Shown here piece by piece: positions 1,140-30,214 of a stretch of 64,000 nucleotides of DNA; position 1 is the first letter of the stretch; every line of letters begins with the position of its first letter. The position numbers were made by a program, and so were the translations under genes. The notes under the pieces were generated by a model. It saw only the letters and a list, made by a program, of their open reading frames with translations. It was not told the origin of the DNA and searched no databases. The DNA is from Candidatus Melainabacteria bacterium (GTDB lineage: Bacteria; Cyanobacteriota; Vampirovibrionia; 2-02-FULL-35-15): the NCBI GenBank assembly GCA_016193285.1, contig JACPSL010000002.1, forward strand, positions 1-64,000, given 5' to 3'.

Positions 1140-3014
1140 ATGCAATCTGAAAACTTTACAAACAAACAATTAAAAATTATTAACAAAGTAAATGCATTTG
1201 CAAAGGCAAATTTATATGCTTTGCCTGGTGAACCCGATAAAAAATTCCCACTTAACGACTTAGTTAAAATAAACTTTCCAACAAAGGAAAACCAACGAGT
1301 ATCTTATGATGTGAGAGATTATCCAGATAGGATGCTGTTACCTGAGTTTTTCAAGAAGTATCCAAATTCCAACATAATTAAACTTAATAGCAATGGTTTT
1401 CTTAGCGTAGTAATTGATATTGATAAAAAAGATGGGAAGTTTTCTAATGAAGCTCTTGCAATTACAGAATTACTAAAAGATTACCCGACTTATGTAGTAG
1501 AAACTCCTAGTGGTGGTCTTCATTACCATTACATAATTGATCCAGCTAGACCTTTAGTTGGAAGGATTATTGGTTATAAAGAAGGTGTTGATATTATTCT
1601 TGATGGTGGTACTCCTCTGCCTCCTTCAACAGCTTGGTCAGATAAGCTAGGTGCTGTAGGTGAATATACAGAAAGAGATCCTATAGAAATAAATCCGCCA
1701 ACTTTATTTCCATATGAAGTATTTCCAGATTTAATTGATACTCCTGAAAATAGGGAAAAACATGGTCAAGAAAAAAAAGTTAGAATACAAGAGCAACTTG
1801 ATAAAGGAGAAATTGCGGAGTATAGAAATGACACCTTCCACCACCTTTCAGTTGCTCTTAATTCAAAGTTTCCTAAAAATCCTAGCCTTGTGTGGGATAT
1901 TGTCAAATGGCTATATGATAACCGCACTAAAAAAGAAGGTTTCTCGCTGAATGAGCTTGAAACTACTTTTAAAAGTGCACTTAATGGAAAGGTTGTTGCT
2001 GAAGCAAGAGAATATGTGCAAGAGGAAATTAACAAAGATGTTGAGAAGTTTGGTGATCCACCTGTAGTATTTTGGAATCAGTTAAAAGATTACGATATTC
2101 CTGAGACATCTTTCCTTGTAACCAATTTAATTGTTGAAAAAGGAATTAATTATATTTATGGTAAGCCTGGTGTGTGCAAAACATGGCTAGCTCAGTACCT
2201 TGCACTTTGTATTGCAAGGGGTATTCCTGCATTTGGCAAATTTTTAACTAAACAATGCAAGATATTGTTTGTTGATAAAGACAATGACCCATACCAAATG
2301 AAACTAAGAGTTGGATCTCTTGGAGGACTTGAGACAGATCAAGTAGCTTTTTACTTAGATTCAGGTCTTTTTAGGGTTGAAAATGAGGAATCTGTAAAAA
2401 GATTAATTGCTTGCATTAAAGAGCATAAGTTTGGGTTAGTTGTTTTTGATACAGCTAGAGATATTCACAAAGGCGAAGAAGATTCTTCTACTGAAATAAA
2501 TAAACTCAACCAAGTATTTAAAAGGATAATACAAGCAGGGTGTGCAGTTCTTGTAATAAGCCACACAAAAAAAGGCGAAGGCGGTGACCTTATTGATCTG
2601 CTTAGAGGTTCAAGTGCATTAGGAGGAGCTGCTGCAAGTATGATCCATGTCAGTCAACCAAATGAAAGTACGGTGATATTACAAATGGGTAAGTGCAGAT
2701 ATGTTAAAAAGATACCACCTATTGAGCTGAATATACTTCAAAACAATAATGGGATAACTGGGTTTGAATATAAAGGTGTTGCAAAGATTGAGCCTATTAA
2801 AAAGTCTAAAGATGAACTTGCAGAACACATCTTAAAGTTAGTAAAAGGTTTTCCTGCTCCTGGATTAACTAGAAAAGATTTAATTCAGGCTTTGCAAAAG
2901 AATGGGAAGCCCAGCGAATCTACCATTGACCGTAGAGTTAATGATTTAGAGGTTGAAGGTTTGATTAAAAAGGATGACGAGGGTAATGTAATGTTTAGGC
3001 AAAATACGAGTTAA
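1140..3014 (+). CDS. replication protein: N-terminal bifunctional primase-polymerase domain fused to an AAA_25/RepA-like (RecA-fold) helicase ATPase, with a C-terminal winged-helix DNA-binding domain
   Basis: The prim-pol signature is IDIDKKDG … TPSGGLHYHY (DxD plus sGxH). Walker A is GKPGVCKT, followed by a FVDKDN Walker B-like strand. The C-terminal wHTH is LTRKDLIQALQKNG…. The RBS is AAGAGGTGA. This architecture is typical of integrative elements, satellites and plasmids. Confidence 0.75.
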   Translation: MQSENFTNKQLKIINKVNAFAKANLYALPGEPDKKFPLNDLVKINFPTKENQRVSYDVRDYPDRMLLPEFFKKYPNSNIIKLNSNGFLSVVIDIDKKDGKFSNEALAITELLKDYPTYVVETPSGGLHYHYIIDPARPLVGRIIGYKEGVDIILDGGTPLPPSTAWSDKLGAVGEYTERDPIEINPPTLFPYEVFPDLIDTPENREKHGQEKKVRIQEQLDKGEIAEYRNDTFHHLSVALNSKFPKNPSLVWDIVKWLYDNRTKKEGFSLNELETTFKSALNGKVVAEAREYVQEEINKDVEKFGDPPVVFWNQLKDYDIPETSFLVTNLIVEKGINYIYGKPGVCKTWLAQYLALCIARGIPAFGKFLTKQCKILFVDKDNDPYQMKLRVGSLGGLETDQVAFYLDSGLFRVENEESVKRLIACIKEHKFGLVVFDTARDIHKGEEDSSTEINKLNQVFKRIIQAGCAVLVISHTKKGEGGDLIDLLRGSSALGGAAASMIHVSQPNESTVILQMGKCRYVKKIPPIELNILQNNNGITGFEYKGVAKIEPIKKSKDELAEHILKLVKGFPAPGLTRKDLIQALQKNGKPSESTIDRRVNDLEVEGLIKKDDEGNVMFRQNTS

Positions 3015-3196: not shown

Positions 3197-3625
3197 GTGC
3201 CGATCATTTCAAACAACAGGAACTTGATTCAGGAGATATTACAGATGAGCGACAAGCTTGGACTGAAGAACACTAAAGAGCAGGTATTTTTAGAAATGAA
3301 GGAAAAATACCATTATTATTCTGAACTTATAAGGAAGTATAGATTAGACACACCTAGTGTACACAAGGAATATTGCAATAGTGATGATCATAGAAGATGT
3401 GGTGCAATTTGGGGGCATTCAAGCATACTATTGGATTTCATTTCTAAACTATGGTGGTGGTTTACCTCTGAAAAACCCTATGCCTATACCGCTAAAGTAA
3501 AACCTAAACTACAAAGTATTACTCAACAAATCCTTTGGCAAAGAAAAGAAGATGAACTTAATGATGAAGAATACTCTTGGCTTATAAAAATAAAGAAGGA
3601 CTGTGAAGCATTGCGAGAGAAATAA
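3197..3625 (+). CDS. hypothetical protein (142 aa)
   Basis: ORF only. No recognisable motifs, and an internal ATG near 3245 is possible. Confidence 0.35.
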   Translation: MPIISNNRNLIQEILQMSDKLGLKNTKEQVFLEMKEKYHYYSELIRKYRLDTPSVHKEYCNSDDHRRCGAIWGHSSILLDFISKLWWWFTSEKPYAYTAKVKPKLQSITQQILWQRKEDELNDEEYSWLIKIKKDCEALREK

Positions 3626-4381: not shown

Positions 4382-4606
4382 TTGGCCAAGTGGTATAAAA
4401 AACTCAAAAAAGCAAGGGAATCAATGGGTTTGTCACTTCAAGGAGCAGTAAATCTACTCTATGAATCACACAAAATTAAAATGCATAGAGTAAATCTTTA
4501 TAAGTTGGAAGAAGGAGAGACTGAAATACCAGTGTCAAAATTTAGAGCTTTGTGTGAAATTTATGATATTAGTGCTGATTGGGTTTTAGATTTAAAAAGT
4601 TATTAA
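4382..4606 (+). CDS. XRE-family helix-turn-helix transcriptional regulator
   Basis: HTH pattern LSLQGAVNLLYESHKIKMHRVNLYKLEEGET… It ends …WVLDLKSY. The ORF track uses a TTG start with a GAGG RBS. An internal ATG giving a 60-aa product is also possible. Confidence 0.55.
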   Translation: MAKWYKKLKKARESMGLSLQGAVNLLYESHKIKMHRVNLYKLEEGETEIPVSKFRALCEIYDISADWVLDLKSY

Positions 4607-4632: not shown

Positions 4633-5115
4633 CTACTTTAGGTAGATGTTTTCAATTTGATCTGCTAAGTTCCTTAAATCAGATGCTATATAAGCCCACT
4701 CAAGATTATTAGAAGAGCTAGATTCACTTACATCTTCAGTACTACAGTTAAAGAAGTATTCTATATCTTTTAGATATTTTTCAATTTCATAACAGAAACC
4801 AAAGTTAGTTTGTATATTAAAATCACCATGGACAATCATACGTCTTAGTTTATTTAGTTTATGAAGGCATGCAAATAACTCCTTCTTTATTTCTTTATCA
4901 AGATTTATCTTATACTTGTTTTTAAAGGAATTTATTTTCTCCTCGAGACCTTCACCTCTTTCATAATTGGGTAGCTTGTCAAGCATTTCATCAAGAAACC
5001 CTTCAAATATTACAACTCTTGATAACAAGAAATACTTTGAGTATCCTTCAACTTTTGCGGACTCAGCAATATTCTGAATTTGTTGGCTATAATTATCAAT
5101 TTCTTGTTTATACAT
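4633..5115 (-). CDS. hypothetical protein, possible HEPN-like (Rx4H motif in LRRMIVHGD)
   Basis: A 160-aa mostly alpha-helical-looking protein with an R-x4-H-G motif near residue 100. It lies 22 bp downstream of the DUF262 gene on the same strand. The HEPN assignment is an inference from the motif alone. Confidence 0.45.
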   Translation of the reverse strand: MYKQEIDNYSQQIQNIAESAKVEGYSKYFLLSRVVIFEGFLDEMLDKLPNYERGEGLEEKINSFKNKYKINLDKEIKKELFACLHKLNKLRRMIVHGDFNIQTNFGFCYEIEKYLKDIEYFFNCSTEDVSESSSSNNLEWAYIASDLRNLADQIENIYLK

Positions 5116-5137
5116 TAGAGGAAAGATACTTTCAAAA

Positions 5138-6361
5138 TTAACCAGTGCGTGCTGAGTCTAAATAACTAGAAAACCCTTCTAGCCTTACTTGTAAAAGATC
5201 TTTGGTGTTTTTCCCACCACCAACATAAGCAGACTTTTGAAAAAATCTAGATTTTGTAAAACCATTAATTATTTCAGTTGTTATACCAGATATTAAATTA
5301 GGCCTGTCTATTCGAGAGACTATTACCAAAACAACAGTTTCATATAAATTTAGATTGACTGTACGATTAACTTTAAATGAATCTTTATTACAAGTCTCTG
5401 CGAGAAACTTAAAAGTATCTATGAAACACTTTTTTTCCATTTCATAATTAAACTTTATAATTTTAGCGCTGCACTGTTCTAAATAAGTTGTCAAAAAAGG
5501 AGCTATATCTTTTTGATATAAGTCCCGATTATTTTTAAATGCAAAAAATCGTAAAACAAGTTCCTCTAAAAACATGCCTTTATTTTTTTTAACTGTAGAA
5601 GGATTTTTTATTAACTTAATAGTATTTAAAAACTGCTTGTTTTTTGATAAATCATTACTAATAAAGTCAATAAACTTACTATCAATTAAACGTATAGAAG
5701 CATTTCTTAGCTGCTGATTAGATAGTTTAGTCCCACCCGCATTAATCCTTGTAAACATGTGATATCTCATCCAAACATCATCTTTTGAATATGAAAACAC
5801 ATATACATCTAAAGGTTTATTTTCTATTCGACGTTGAATCTTTCCATCAATAGAATGGTAGGTCTTCCCATTTAGTCCTTCTACAATATCACAACCTTTT
5901 AATTCAAGGTACTCAACATTATTATTAGTGTCTACCGTGTTTTCTGTTTCAGTAGGCTCCTCGTTTGATTCATCGTCTTCATTAAGTTCAAAATCTTCTT
6001 CAGGACTTTCTTCATTTAATTTATCTCTGTCAATATCAGTCAAATATTTAGTTTTTCCTATAAAGTGTAAGTAAGTACTAATTCTTTGTAAGCCGTCTAA
6101 TAGCTCCCATGCTCCATCTGCATTCTCCGCAAAATAAACAGGTGGAACTGGTAAATTAAGAGCAAGAGATTCAATAAATCTAGATTGTTGAGTAATAGTC
6201 CATTCAAAGGTTCTTTGATACGAAGGTGCAATTGTCAGTTGCTTACTTTCAATCTTTGAAGTTATCCATGATAAATCATAAGTAAATTTTTCAACAGTTA
6301 CTTTAGTTCTTTTGGCTGCTATTTCATTGGCAATATTCATACTCACAACATTTTCTGGCAT
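5138..6361 (-). CDS. DUF262 (ParB-like / GmrS-N-terminal-like) domain protein
   Basis: The N-terminal region carries the DGQQR-type motif (…WELLDGLQRISTYLHF…) after a QRTFEWT strand. It has an acidic linker (EDFELNEDDESNEEPTETEN) and a roughly 200-aa C-terminal domain of unknown type. I see no DUF1524/HNH motif. Its start overlaps the methyltransferase stop by 19 bp. Confidence 0.75.
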   Translation of the reverse strand: MPENVVSMNIANEIAAKRTKVTVEKFTYDLSWITSKIESKQLTIAPSYQRTFEWTITQQSRFIESLALNLPVPPVYFAENADGAWELLDGLQRISTYLHFIGKTKYLTDIDRDKLNEESPEEDFELNEDDESNEEPTETENTVDTNNNVEYLELKGCDIVEGLNGKTYHSIDGKIQRRIENKPLDVYVFSYSKDDVWMRYHMFTRINAGGTKLSNQQLRNASIRLIDSKFIDFISNDLSKNKQFLNTIKLIKNPSTVKKNKGMFLEELVLRFFAFKNNRDLYQKDIAPFLTTYLEQCSAKIIKFNYEMEKKCFIDTFKFLAETCNKDSFKVNRTVNLNLYETVVLVIVSRIDRPNLISGITTEIINGFTKSRFFQKSAYVGGGKNTKDLLQVRLEGFSSYLDSARTG

Positions 6362-7515
6362 TTAAATACTACCTCATTTATATTTGCATTACCTTTTATA
6401 TAATTAAAACCAGCAGCCATAAATCTTGATTCATCAAGAATAGTAAAACCTCTATTTTCTAAGCTCTCTGAAAAAATTTTTGATAAATTTACATCAATAT
6501 CTTTAAACATTGAATCCTGTAGAACGATATGAAGTGCCCCCTTCGATTTAAGTACCCTATCGATTTCGTCAAAACTTTTTTCCATATTATAGAAATAATC
6601 ATGGAATGTTTTGTAGTAATAGGAAGCCGAGGCTTTTGAGTTGTGAGATTTAATTCTATGGAGTAAGTTTTTTATCCTACTTGAGAACTTAAAAGAATTA
6701 TAAAGAATTCTTACTGTTGGAGTACCAATAAGGTTTCTTCTTAGCACATTAAATTTATTATTATCGTAACCCAACCAAACTAGTTCAGGGAGAGTCATAA
6801 CAGCATAGTCAATCCTAGTACAATATGGTGGTGAAGTGATAATGCAATCTATGCTACCTGACCTTATTGGAAGAGCCAACGATGATCCTGTCCTTAATAA
6901 AGGCAAAACAGATCTAGATACTCTCTTAGAACAATTTTGTTCGTAGAAGTGATTTATAGAAGATCTACACTCCTCAATCCATTCTTCGAAATTAAATTTA
7001 CTTAAATCATCGTCATTCTTGGGTCTTTTAATCCAAGTTGGGTTTGAACTAAAGTAATCAATGAGCTGCTTTCTAAATGCTTTAATAGCAATATATGACA
7101 GGAAATTTCGAATAATAGGTTTTCTAAGAGCTAGAATTTTATTTCTTATAACACTCAATTTTTGAGTGCTCTCTTTTGTGAACCAAAGAAAATCAAATGG
7201 TGATACGCTCTTAATTCCAATATCTTTCCAAGTGCTTACATATTTTAAAGATTCTTCTAAAACTGAATAATCTGCTAATCGAGCATAGGAATATATCAAT
7301 GTTGCTTCATTAATATCTATTCCAATAGATTTATAACCTAGATCATAAGCTACAGAGGTTGTCATTCCAGATCCGTTCCAAGGATCGAGTATTAGAGCAG
7401 TCTTTTCATTGATGTTGGATGATTTAATTGCATGCTCTACAAAAGTGTGGCTGAATCCAGCATAATAATTTATACTTGATTCTTGCTTTTTAATCTTTGT
7501 TGATGGAGTTACCAT
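6343..7515 (-). CDS. DNA methyltransferase (amino-MTase, N6-adenine or N4-cytosine)
   Basis: Motif I-like LDPWNGSGMTT preceded by an HPxxFP-like FSHTFVEH. Motif IV SPPY lies about 170 aa downstream (ITSPPYCTRIDY). The motif order is I…IV. The gene overlaps the DUF262 gene, indicating an operon. Confidence 0.8.
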   Translation of the reverse strand: MVTPSTKIKKQESSINYYAGFSHTFVEHAIKSSNINEKTALILDPWNGSGMTTSVAYDLGYKSIGIDINEATLIYSYARLADYSVLEESLKYVSTWKDIGIKSVSPFDFLWFTKESTQKLSVIRNKILALRKPIIRNFLSYIAIKAFRKQLIDYFSSNPTWIKRPKNDDDLSKFNFEEWIEECRSSINHFYEQNCSKRVSRSVLPLLRTGSSLALPIRSGSIDCIITSPPYCTRIDYAVMTLPELVWLGYDNNKFNVLRRNLIGTPTVRILYNSFKFSSRIKNLLHRIKSHNSKASASYYYKTFHDYFYNMEKSFDEIDRVLKSKGALHIVLQDSMFKDIDVNLSKIFSESLENRGFTILDESRFMAAGFNYIKGNANINEVVFKCQKML

Positions 7516-7610: not shown

Positions 7611-8729
7611 TTACCACCCCTGCATCTCTTTAATAACTTCATCCTGTGTAGTCATAAGATAGCCTTGTGTTGTTTTCAAATCAGCATGTCCTAAAGCAAG
7701 TGAAATAATATTAATTGGCTTACCAGAATTAGCAGCTATTGTTGCAAATGTTCTTCTAAGTCCATGAACATTTACTTCGATGCCTATTCTTTTTGAAAGC
7801 CTTTTTACTTTTCTAAGTAGGGTGGCTGTGTTAAATGGTACAAGCTCACCCCTAGTTGACCTTATAGTAGTTACAAAGAAATTTTCTAGATTTGTTTTTG
7901 GCCTTAATTTTAAATAATTGGCAAGATAATCATAAAGCCTGTTACTGATACCTACAAATCTATTTTTCTTACCTTTGCCTAGATAGACAAAGAGCTTTCT
8001 ATTTACTAAATCAACATCTTGAACTTTGAGATTGCAAAGCTCACTTGCCCTTAAACCAGCTAAACCTATCGTTGCAATTGTTGTACTGTTCAGGATTACA
8101 TCATAAGGTGTTTGTCCACTATGCCATCTTGATGCTTCTATTAAAAGCCTTTCAAATTCATCTTGACTGCAATGAACTTTTTTAGCAGGGTAAAACCTTT
8201 TGGGTTTTAGTTCTTTTAATTCTTCTAAGAATTTTTTATCCACCAAGCCATTTATAATTAGATATTTAATAAAAGACCTTATTGCTTTGTATAGATTATC
8301 TTTTATGCTAAAGCTCTTAGGGTCTATGCTTCCAAGAACTTGCCTTAAGTTTGCTACAGAAATTAAAGAATTTCTATTTCCTCTTTTAATAACTAAATTA
8401 TTCCAATATATACCGAAGCAATAAATATAAAGTCTTATGGTATGTTCACTAAGTGGTTTCCCAATGAGTTTTCCTGTTTTTAGCCAGTCTAACCATTCAC
8501 TTATTTGCTCTTTTACAAAAGTCTTGTTTGATAGAGAGTTTTCTTCCTTCTTTTTTAGTTGTCTAGTCTTTTTCCATTCCAAATAACTATTTAAAGGTAT
8601 AAGGTATGTAAAACCACCTGGAAAAGGTTTTGTGATTGTAGGTAGGTCTTTAGCCTTTGCTAATCTTAAAATGGAGCGTCTAGATAGCCTTAAATCCCCT
8701 GCTACCTCATTAAGTGTCAAAGTATCCAA
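7611..8729 (-). CDS. tyrosine site-specific integrase (phage integrase family)
   Basis: C-terminal catalytic signature …VHGLRRTFATIAANSG…LGHADLKTTQGYL (R, HxxR, Y). An N-terminal HTH is present (LRLSRRSILRLAKAKDLP). The gene is adjacent to a tRNA 3' end and reads away from it. Confidence 0.85.
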   Translation of the reverse strand: MDTLTLNEVAGDLRLSRRSILRLAKAKDLPTITKPFPGGFTYLIPLNSYLEWKKTRQLKKKEENSLSNKTFVKEQISEWLDWLKTGKLIGKPLSEHTIRLYIYCFGIYWNNLVIKRGNRNSLISVANLRQVLGSIDPKSFSIKDNLYKAIRSFIKYLIINGLVDKKFLEELKELKPKRFYPAKKVHCSQDEFERLLIEASRWHSGQTPYDVILNSTTIATIGLAGLRASELCNLKVQDVDLVNRKLFVYLGKGKKNRFVGISNRLYDYLANYLKLRPKTNLENFFVTTIRSTRGELVPFNTATLLRKVKRLSKRIGIEVNVHGLRRTFATIAANSGKPINIISLALGHADLKTTQGYLMTTQDEVIKEMQGW

Positions 8730-8794: not shown

Positions 8795-8868
8795 TCGGGG
8801 CGACACGATTTGAACGTGCGACCCTCTGCTCCCAAAGCAGATGCTCTACCAAGCTGAGCCACGCCCCG
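8795..8868 (-). tRNA. tRNA-Pro (anticodon UGG)
   Basis: Cloverleaf folded by hand. The acceptor is CGGGGCG/CGCCCCG with C1-G72, the D-stem GCTC/GAGC and the anticodon stem TCTGC/GCAGA. The anticodon loop is TTTGGGA (anticodon TGG). The T-arm is GCACG TTCAAAT CGTGT and the discriminator is A. CCA is not encoded. Confidence 0.85.
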
Positions 8869-30140: not shown

Positions 30141-30214
30141 CGGGCCGTGGCTCAGCTTGGTAGAGCACTTCCTTGGGGTGGAAGGGGTCGAGAGTTCAAA
30201 TCTCTCCGGTCCGA
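30141..30214 (+). tRNA. tRNA-Pro (anticodon GGG)
   Basis: Folded by hand. Acceptor CGGGCCG/CGGTCCG, D-stem GCTC/GAGC, anticodon stem CTTCC/GGAAG, anticodon loop TTGGGGT, T-arm GAGAG TTCAAAT CTCTC and discriminator A. Confidence 0.85.

Follow-up and report, generated by a model that had tools for sequence, protein, structure and literature searches.

We analyzed a stretch of 64,000 nucleotides from Candidatus Melainabacteria bacterium (positions 1 to 64,000 of contig JACPSL010000002.1, assembly GCA_016193285.1; hereafter the window, to which coordinates refer unless another locus is named), in which three adjacent genes encode a DNA methyltransferase (MTase), a ParB-like DUF262 protein, and a small HEPN-like protein. 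We are highly confident that this locus is a divergent member of a widespread, known cassette. A preliminary description of the sequence had presented the trio as an undescribed arrangement, which is not supported: the layout appears in a table published in 2013 (Anantharaman et al., 2013), the closely analogous PD-T4-2 and PD-lambda-5 systems were validated against phages in 2022 (Vassallo et al., 2022), and PGAP names such HEPN neighbors. The cassette is thus not new in kind. Its three-gene form is common and co-evolving, with 498 DUF262 relatives and an MTase in 53 of the 84 cassettes inspected. On balance, we favor the reading that the MTase, the DUF262 protein as sensor, and the HEPN RNase-like protein act together as a restriction-modification (R-M)-like system with an RNase effector arm. 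A role of the cassette in defense against mobile elements is probable.

The three genes form a conserved cassette that is inherited as a unit

The open reading frames (ORFs) of the trio all lie on the minus strand:

6343 to 7515, minus strand: DNA methyltransferase, 390 amino acids (aa), an amino-MTase with motif I ahead of motif IV (Pfam N6_N4_Mtase, 7.4e-15)
5138 to 6361, minus strand: ParB-like DUF262 and ParBDB protein, 407 aa, predicted nucleoside triphosphatase (NTPase) and DNA sensor (Pfam GmrSD_N/DUF262, 6.7e-26, aa 39-223)
4633 to 5115, minus strand: short HEPN-like protein, 160 aa, predicted RNase effector (synteny, Rx4HG motif, HEPN-clan matches of relatives, and hhalign)

The 3' end of the MTase gene extends 19 bp into the DUF262 gene, and a gap of 22 bp separates the DUF262 gene from that of the 160-aa protein. 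These values agree exactly with the preliminary description, which had reported three co-directional, tightly coupled genes, and the motifs that it named (DPWNGSGMTT, SPPY, DGLQR, and Rx4HG in the form RRMIVHG) were all recovered by translation. The ORFs are not products of chance, because they reach this length in DNA of ~30% G+C, have homologs elsewhere, and encode proteins identical to those annotated in an NCBI Candidatus Melainabacteria metagenome-assembled genome (MAG). A promoter scan returned 18 promoter-like sites against 17 expected, i.e., the level of chance, and a terminator scan gave no convincing terminator downstream of the 160-aa gene.

The arrangement recurs in related loci. 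In all seven neighborhoods of DUF262 homologs with 32-50% identity, an MTase gene (~400 aa, overlapping or abutting the DUF262 gene) is followed by the DUF262 gene and then a small gene, and the flanks are unrelated; given these unrelated flanks, the trio moves independently of the island in the window. A scan of one genome per species yielded the 498 DUF262 relatives, of which the best 80 were inspected; with four other loci, these make up a census of 84 cassettes, scored with hidden Markov models (HMMs) built from the window and the seven neighborhoods. A HEPN gene lies directly downstream in 80 of the 84 cassettes and a family MTase directly upstream in 53, with 50 containing the complete trio. 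Of the 79 loci with a DUF262 ORF, 54 have the family MTase directly upstream (E 1e-87 to 1e-174), and in 76 the ORF directly downstream belongs to the HEPN family, the remaining three being truncated by the contig end. Contig ends likewise account for most of the census loci without a HEPN gene. Co-localization elsewhere, which the preliminary description had named as a check on its proposal, is therefore strongly borne out.

The related cassettes span many phyla, and their three proteins have diverged together. Pairwise-identity matrices are correlated for DUF262 and MTase (0.67), DUF262 and HEPN (0.85), and MTase and HEPN (0.69; Mantel p = 0.001), and the cassette has therefore been inherited as a unit. 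Loci without an MTase fall, a few sporadic cases aside, into one contiguous 24-member clade of Lachnospiraceae type (the L029-L081 cluster). This clade represents a true two-gene form, because housekeeping genes occupy the upstream position. One of the sporadic cases (L089, positions 3207-3458) retains 83 aa of the family MTase (E 7e-13) as a remnant upstream of intact DUF262 and HEPN genes.

The DUF262 protein is a predicted NTPase sensor with a ParBDB domain

The second protein of the trio contains the following features, for which invariance was scored in a 24-sequence family alignment with motif definitions from Li et al. (2025; PMC12065111):

6200 to 6220, minus strand: DUF262 motif I, YQRTFEW (QRxxxW); Q49, R50, F52, and W54 invariant
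6083 to 6097, minus strand: DUF262 motif II, DGLQR (DGxQR, nucleotide-binding center); D89, G90, L91, Q92, and R93 invariant
5912 to 6037, minus strand: acidic insertion of low complexity within DUF262, aa 109-150; 25% D/E, spanned by the Pfam DUF262 match
5732 to 5755, minus strand: DUF262 motif III, FTRINAGG (FxxxN); F203, R205, N207, G209, and G210 invariant
5141 to 5689, minus strand: C-terminal ParBDB domain with GGGKN loop; PADLOC NsnA and PD-T4-2_A profiles align through the region

All three signature motifs are thus intact. In PADLOC the protein matches NsnA (5.9e-53, aa 17-358; profile positions 40-335 of 385) and PD-T4-2_A (PDLC04027, 1.2e-34, aa 158-378), and its N-terminus matches a REase_II model (PDLC03418, 2e-9); there are no Dazbog or PD-lambda-5 models among its PADLOC matches. 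It also matches phrog_2598 (2.3e-68) and has more than 2000 homologs. A search of PDB sequences with the DUF262 profile gave nothing significant, the best match being BrxU (E 0.058). Profile matching indicates that the protein is homologous to subunit A of PD-T4-2, a system validated by experiment. Neither Pfam nor PADLOC detected DUF1524/HNH in the protein or its neighbors and the protein has no nuclease domain, in agreement with the earlier account of a DUF262 protein that lacks this partner domain.

Two other parts of that account required revision. An acidic linker had been reported ahead of the C-terminal domain; the acidic stretch exists, but it sits within DUF262 between motifs II and III. 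The spacing between these motifs is 109 aa in the window compared to a family median of 73.5, with similar expansions in the closest clade; the stretch is a variable loop that has expanded specifically in this clade. The C-terminal domain had been described as impossible to place. By profile alignment, it is homologous to the domains at the C-termini of NsnA and PD-T4-2_A, because both PADLOC profiles cover the region, and it corresponds to ParBDB, the eight-helix ParB-associated DNA-binding domain common to DndB, GmrSD-M, and SspE-M (Li et al., 2025; PMC12065111). Near its C-terminus is a glycine-rich GGGKN(T) loop (5204-5221, aa 381-386) in which G382, G383, K384, and N385 are invariant across the 24 sequences; its role, which might be a phosphate or nucleic-acid contact, is unmentioned in the literature we found.

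The domain content bears on whether the DUF262 protein could itself cut DNA. If the cassette were a classical R-M system with a fail-safe, the DUF262/ParB protein would nick or cut unmethylated DNA, with self DNA protected by the MTase, and the HEPN protein would be a back-up suicide toxin of PrrC type, restrained by the restriction component and released only once a phage anti-restriction factor disabled the latter. The REase_II match at the N-terminus points this way, as does the literature: Anantharaman et al. (2013) named the partner a 'ParB nuclease' and proposed PrrC-like logic for HEPNs associated with R-M systems, nicking enzymes exist in the ParB/Srx superfamily (PMC12839542), and PD-lambda-5 has been described by its authors as a compacted 'RM+Abi' system (Vassallo et al., 2022). 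In GmrSD, BrxU, and SspE, however, DUF262 serves as the NTPase/sensor, and DNA is cut by a DUF1524 HNH domain fused to it, which is absent here. Moreover, the forms without an MTase and the locus with an MTase remnant would poison themselves if DUF262 cut unmethylated DNA. We consider such a nuclease role unlikely compared to the sensor role assigned in the favored R-M-like reading.

The third protein is a putative shortened HEPN

The preliminary description had called the third protein HEPN-like and proposed HMM searches with all three proteins. The first two were readily matched in Pfam and PADLOC, but the 160-aa protein had no direct match in Pfam, PADLOC, or NCBIfam, the first two being empty even at E<=10, and its best PHROGs match was non-significant (E 0.064). 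The assignment as HEPN-like nevertheless stands, since the Rx4H motif is present and relatives match HEPN-clan models. Two conserved motifs were located:

4999 to 5007, minus strand: FEG motif (F37, E38, G39) of the HEPN-like protein, located in its first long helix; invariant in short forms
4825 to 4845, minus strand: HEPN Rx4H motif RRMIVHG (R91...H96 G97), from the translation

In most related loci, the third gene encodes ~230 aa with a direct Pfam match to HEPN_MAE_28990 and HEPN_RiboL-PSP (e.g., L004/5, L007/8, and L009/10). The window, together with the clade closest to it (Vampirovibrionia/Melainabacteria plus a small number of other MAGs), encodes short forms of 156-192 aa. This short-form family is tiny: a word-indexed homolog search with the 160-aa protein recovered itself alone, an exhaustive phmmer search of 1.8 billion representatives found two true relatives plus three spurious repetitive proteins, and a profile search with the short-form family alignment returned four proteins in total. 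Five of six short-form relatives gave sub-threshold matches to HEPN-clan models, with E-values of 1.6e-5 to 7e-3 for HEPN_RiboL-PSP (PF18735; 1.6e-5 to 7e-5 in the closest relatives), 0.026-0.029 for MAE_28990 (PF18737), and 0.003 for Swt1. Matches to DUF4145 and DUF3644, which are HEPN families according to the literature, were also obtained, below gathering scores overall.

The short forms can be aligned with the long ones around the predicted active site. No member of the short-form family deviates at R91, I94, H96, G97, or F99, and the short-form Rx4HG aligns to RNxIAHG of the long HEPN_MAE_28990 forms, which carry Y..EGF at the N-terminal position equivalent to FEG. The spacing between EG and the catalytic arginine is 52-75 aa in short forms vs. 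127-132 aa in long forms, such that the short forms lack ~55-75 residues there. Comparison of profiles of 9 short and 67 long sequences by hhalign gave 84% probability (E 7e-6) over 48 columns centered on the catalytic (RNxIxHG) helix, superseding an earlier, shallower comparison (5 vs. 4 sequences) of this type that had given 15%. When 1874 ORFs were searched with the short-form HMM, all 19 matches with E<1e-3 were genes downstream of DUF262, 15 of them long HEPNs. An AlphaFold2 model of the 160-aa protein is all-alpha with six helices, at low confidence (predicted local distance difference test, pLDDT, ~55), and a PDB sequence search with the HEPN profile returned only noise. We read the protein as a shortened HEPN below the detection of Pfam and PADLOC because of its syntenic position, the invariant Rx4HG and FEG motifs, the HEPN-clan matches of its relatives, and the hhalign result.

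It could be argued that this copy is decaying, with a shortened HEPN that no longer functions and an orphan MTase and DNA-binding protein left behind. Consistent with decay, the short forms are missing the residues that separate the EG motif from the catalytic arginine, no HEPN model matches the 160-aa protein, and the window copy has R92 (RRMIVHG) where all other short forms have N after the catalytic arginine (RNxIxHG). Yet at least eight distinct cassettes from different lineages keep the short form as an intact ORF in which R, H, G, and FEG are invariant, and the functional PD-T4-2B protein is likewise only ~165 aa. An inactive copy is very improbable on this evidence, and we treat the 160-aa protein below as a candidate effector.

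The methyltransferase belongs to a cassette-specific family

The MTase matches the PADLOC model MTase_II (PDLC03224, 1e-23) and phrog_18146 (3e-26), and its two signature motifs are as follows:

7357 to 7386, minus strand: MTase motif I, the S-adenosylmethionine-binding loop DPWNGSGMTT, aa 44-53, from the translation
6805 to 6834, minus strand: MTase motif IV, the catalytic loop SPPYCTRIDY, aa 228-237, from the translation (SPPY at 6823-6834)

The enzyme belongs to a family of 56 sequences that is specific to the cassette (E 1e-87 to 1e-174 vs. the family HMM built here). An orphan methylase with an unrelated neighbor, a possibility listed in the preliminary description, is thereby ruled out. 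Motif I has the family consensus DPWNGsGTTT, SPPY is invariant in all 56 MTases, and SPPYCTRIDY is conserved throughout the family. In amino-MTases, SPPY in place of DPPY in motif IV points to N4-cytosine methylation. From this invariant motif, the enzyme is possibly an N4-cytosine MTase, and the sole PDB sequence matches were N4-cytosine MTases, weak and at motif I (E 0.02).

In one related locus (L088, 231-3230), a 999-aa Eco57I/MmeI-type (type IIG-like) methyltransferase replaces the family MTase upstream of the DUF262 and HEPN genes, which suggests that the modification module is exchangeable.

Proposed function of the cassette

In the R-M-like reading, the MTase would mark the host's own DNA. 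The DUF262-ParBDB protein, with no nuclease domain, would bind or scan DNA and use its NTPase switch (QRxxxW, DGxQR, FxxxN) to read the modification status. On encountering DNA without the cognate mark, or DNA with some other sign of foreign origin, it would license the small HEPN partner, which would cut RNA through its Rx4H site and halt the propagation of phage or plasmid, perhaps abortively. The cassette is moved and inherited as a unit, here probably as cargo of an integrase-bearing element at tRNA-Pro. We infer the RNase activity, the coupling between DUF262 and HEPN, the direction in which the methyl mark is sensed, and the phenotype. The scheme has precedent in GmrSD and SspE, where an effector is activated by DUF262 acting as NTPase sensor and ParBDB is the part that binds DNA (Li et al., 2025; PMC12065111). 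In the same work, methylase-linked ParB-DUF262 systems were noted and speculated to target non-modified genomes.

Several points weigh against this reading. The DUF262-HEPN core is tolerated without an MTase, as follows from the MTase-less clade and from the MTase remnant of L089 beside intact DUF262 and HEPN genes; both oppose a simple rule by which unmethylated DNA triggers the system, unless the trigger varies between forms. The characterized DUF262 sensors GmrSD, BrxU, and SspE recognize modified, not unmodified, DNA (Li et al., 2025; PMC12065111). On the effector side, the R92 substitution sets the window's HEPN apart, and the PADLOC PD-T4-2_B model matches neither the 160-aa protein (E<=10) nor the family's long HEPNs, so that homology to the validated effector is remote. 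Finally, the literature searched contained no published experiment on the exact trio of MTase, DUF262, and HEPN_MAE_28990 proteins.

Some of these points could instead be taken to mean that DUF262 is a type IV-like sensor, which would activate HEPN on reading modified DNA, either of hypermodified phages or of an invader marked in a Pgl-like manner by the cassette's own MTase; methylation would then not be self-protective. Besides the precedent of every characterized DUF262 sensor and the absence of the MTase throughout a clade, PD-T4-2 protects against T-even phages with modified cytosines and has no MTase (Vassallo et al., 2022). The MTase of the cassette, however, is family-specific, its gene runs into the start of the DUF262 gene, and the two proteins have diverged in parallel (r 0.67, p 0.001), as is typical of a cognate modification and recognition pair. 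A host that methylated itself with the mark attacked by its own sensor would also suffer toxicity unless the system were tightly regulated. A sensor of modified DNA is therefore improbable in our assessment, and we retain the R-M-like reading; the chance that unmethylated DNA is the trigger is about even at best.

Taken furthest, the R-M-like reading would make the methylase-linked DUF262-HEPN cassette a distinct immune system that reads the absence of its cognate methyl mark, the inverse of GmrSD, BrxU, and SspE, and licenses a separate HEPN RNase, with the Melainabacteria-type short HEPN a minimal effector variant invisible to current defense-finder models. We regard this full proposal as tentative and rather doubtful. 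If true, it would describe an R-M system in which 'restriction' consists of RNA cleavage or abortive infection and not DNA cleavage. The three-gene form also poses the question raised by Li et al. (2025) of whether a DUF262 sensor, to date known solely to read modified DNA, can target unmodified DNA with the help of a cognate methylase. What the methylase contributes can be gauged by natural comparison with the sister clade that has no MTase. The short-HEPN clade, including the window, escapes Pfam, NCBIfam, and PADLOC, and illustrates how fast-evolving effectors can hide known systems from automated defense annotation.

Genomic setting and probable carriage on a mobile element

Immediately upstream of the trio are two adjacent features:

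7611 to 8729, minus strand: tyrosine integrase (Pfam Phage_integrase, 3.5e-25); mobile-element carrier, context only
8795 to 8868, minus strand: tRNA-Pro(tgg) (ARAGORN); probable integration site

The preliminary description had placed the trio on a tRNA-Pro island. The integrase does adjoin tRNA-Pro, but the far boundary of the island was not found: no second copy of the 3' end of tRNA-Pro(tgg), expected as an att repeat, occurs within the window, and other assemblies of the locus (<=7.6 kb) are too short to extend leftwards. Carriage of the cassette on a mobile element is plausible, with the extent of that element undefined, and the earlier view of a defense-type cassette as integrase-linked cargo is very probably right.

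Other cargo nearby includes a replication protein, helix-turn-helix (HTH) regulators, and a PIN fragment, according to Pfam. The replication protein (1140-3014, 624 aa) has an N-terminal primase-polymerase (prim-pol) domain and an AAA_25 (RepA-like/DnaB-like) ATPase domain. Together with small ribbon-helix-helix (RHH)/HTH genes in its vicinity (850-1035 and 4382-4606), it resembles a module for the replication and regulation of an integrative or satellite-like element. At 119-361, an 80-aa ORF matches the PIN_12 model over just its N-terminal 72 of 172 positions and is thus a truncated PIN-domain gene. Independent Logan assemblies of the locus (L092) from several runs (SRR12113418, SRR12113425, SRR12113426, and SRR12113428) stop near positions 113 and 7708, the latter between MTase and integrase, and these ends may reflect strain-level variation at the edges of the element. 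A second tRNA-Pro (anticodon GGG) is encoded on the plus strand at 30141-30214, ~21 kb from the tRNA-Pro(TGG) on the integrase side.

This setting raises the question of whether the trio could be an addiction or stabilization module of an integrative element, in which HEPN is the toxin, DUF262 and/or methylation is the antidote, and a cell that loses the island dies, with phage defense not the primary role. Both R-M systems and HEPN toxin-antitoxin modules are known to cause addiction. The integrase, the prim-pol/AAA_25 gene, and the HTH regulators are compatible with such a role, and HEPN toxin-antitoxin logic has been described (PMC3710099). A plasmid of Roseomonas also carries the family MTase, the DUF262 gene, and a gene that PGAP calls 'MAE_28990/MAE_18760 family HEPN-like nuclease', next to RelE/ParE and RepA. 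On the other hand, most related cassettes lie in an ordinary chromosomal setting among housekeeping genes with no mobile-element genes, and homologous or analogous systems yield measurable phage protection. We consider an addiction role quite improbable, and defense against mobile elements remains the function we favor for the cassette.

Additional settings were observed among related loci. In one lineage (L007, 6024-9191; L008, 4067-7234), the trio lies directly upstream of JetA/JetB/JetC (Wadjet), and in another (L004, 496-2363) it adjoins an MvaI/BcnI-type restriction endonuclease and an HTH gene; both are defense-island contexts. The temperate Terrisporobacter phage TVCOM_ph1 (L098, 2986-6415) encodes on one strand, beside a repressor/anti-repressor module, a DUF262 protein, a HEPN-family protein (E 2e-15 vs. 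the long-HEPN HMM), and then a different 497-aa DNA methyltransferase, i.e., the three functions of the trio in another order. In the P2-like phage P2_4B2 (L096, 140-2015), a DUF262 gene and a gene for a 239-aa protein with RNDLAHG occupy an end-of-genome hotspot.

Comparison with known systems

The closest description of the layout is that of Anantharaman, Makarova, Burroughs, Koonin, and Aravind (2013, Biol Direct 8:15), whose Table 1 gives for the MAE_28990-family HEPN (Pfam PF18737) an operon that includes a ParB nuclease and a DNA methylase, and for Ribo L-PSP-HEPN an "operon with ParB". This is a single table line unaccompanied by experiment. The window shares with it a DNA methylase, a ParB-like DUF262 protein, and an Rx4-6H HEPN protein, and related loci carry a third gene with a direct Pfam HEPN_MAE_28990 match beside homologs of the window's DUF262 and MTase genes. 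The window's own third protein differs in being 160 aa vs. ~230 and under the Pfam threshold, such that its tie to the family is through synteny, motifs, and profile-profile comparison. Layout, DUF262, MTase, and the position and profile of the HEPN thus all agree with the 2013 cassette, the direct PF18737 match alone being absent.

Neither Menshen nor the DUF1524-bearing systems accommodate the locus. NsnA of Menshen (NsnABC; Millman et al., 2022; Li et al., 2025) has the same ParB-DUF262 and ParBDB architecture and is the best PADLOC match of the window's DUF262 protein. Membership was nevertheless rejected: the locus lacks NsnB (ABC-ATPase/DUF3696) and NsnC (inPIN-effector), there is no ATPase gene in the operon, and MTase and HEPN genes flank DUF262 instead. 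With GmrSD, BrxU, and SspE, the protein shares an N-terminal DUF262 NTPase domain with all three motifs followed by a helical DNA-binding middle domain. It differs from them in lacking the DUF1524 HNH domain, in having a presumed effector in a separate HEPN protein, and in being encoded alongside an MTase; membership was rejected on the absence of DUF1524 and the non-significant similarity to BrxU.

PD-lambda-5 ('ParB/HEPN, methyltransferase') is a validated system with broad protection that needed an mrr-deleted host (Vassallo et al., 2022). As in the window, a single operon, here of shown anti-phage activity, brings together a domain of the ParB superfamily, a region resembling HEPN, and a DNA methyltransferase. 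In contrast to the window, its ParB domain is ParBc-like rather than DUF262 and is fused to HEPN, and its MTase is Dam-like (MethyltransfD12) rather than N6_N4_Mtase. With separate DUF262 and HEPN genes and a different type of MTase, the window locus was not assigned to PD-lambda-5.

PD-T4-2 from E. coli ECOR65 is annotated as 'DUF262, HEPN', with two coding sequences in 1,540 bp, and its cloned functional fragment of 1.8 kb contains no MTase (Vassallo et al., 2022; PMC9519451). Validation was against T4, and its deletion from the native host sensitized ECOR65 to this phage. HHpred matched its B protein to HEPN_RiboL-PSP (97.8%), HEPN_MAE_28990 (96.9%, residues 7-163), and HEPN_Swt1 (88%); from this span, we estimate the protein at about 165 aa. 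Like PD-T4-2, the window has a DUF262 protein with no DUF1524 followed by a small HEPN gene. It differs in having an MTase gene that overlaps the DUF262 gene, and its DUF262 protein scores higher against NsnA than against PD-T4-2_A. Strict membership was rejected given the MTase and the lack of a match to the B model. By analogy, the window cassette would in its working be most like PD-T4-2 with a modification module added, or an unfused PD-lambda-5.

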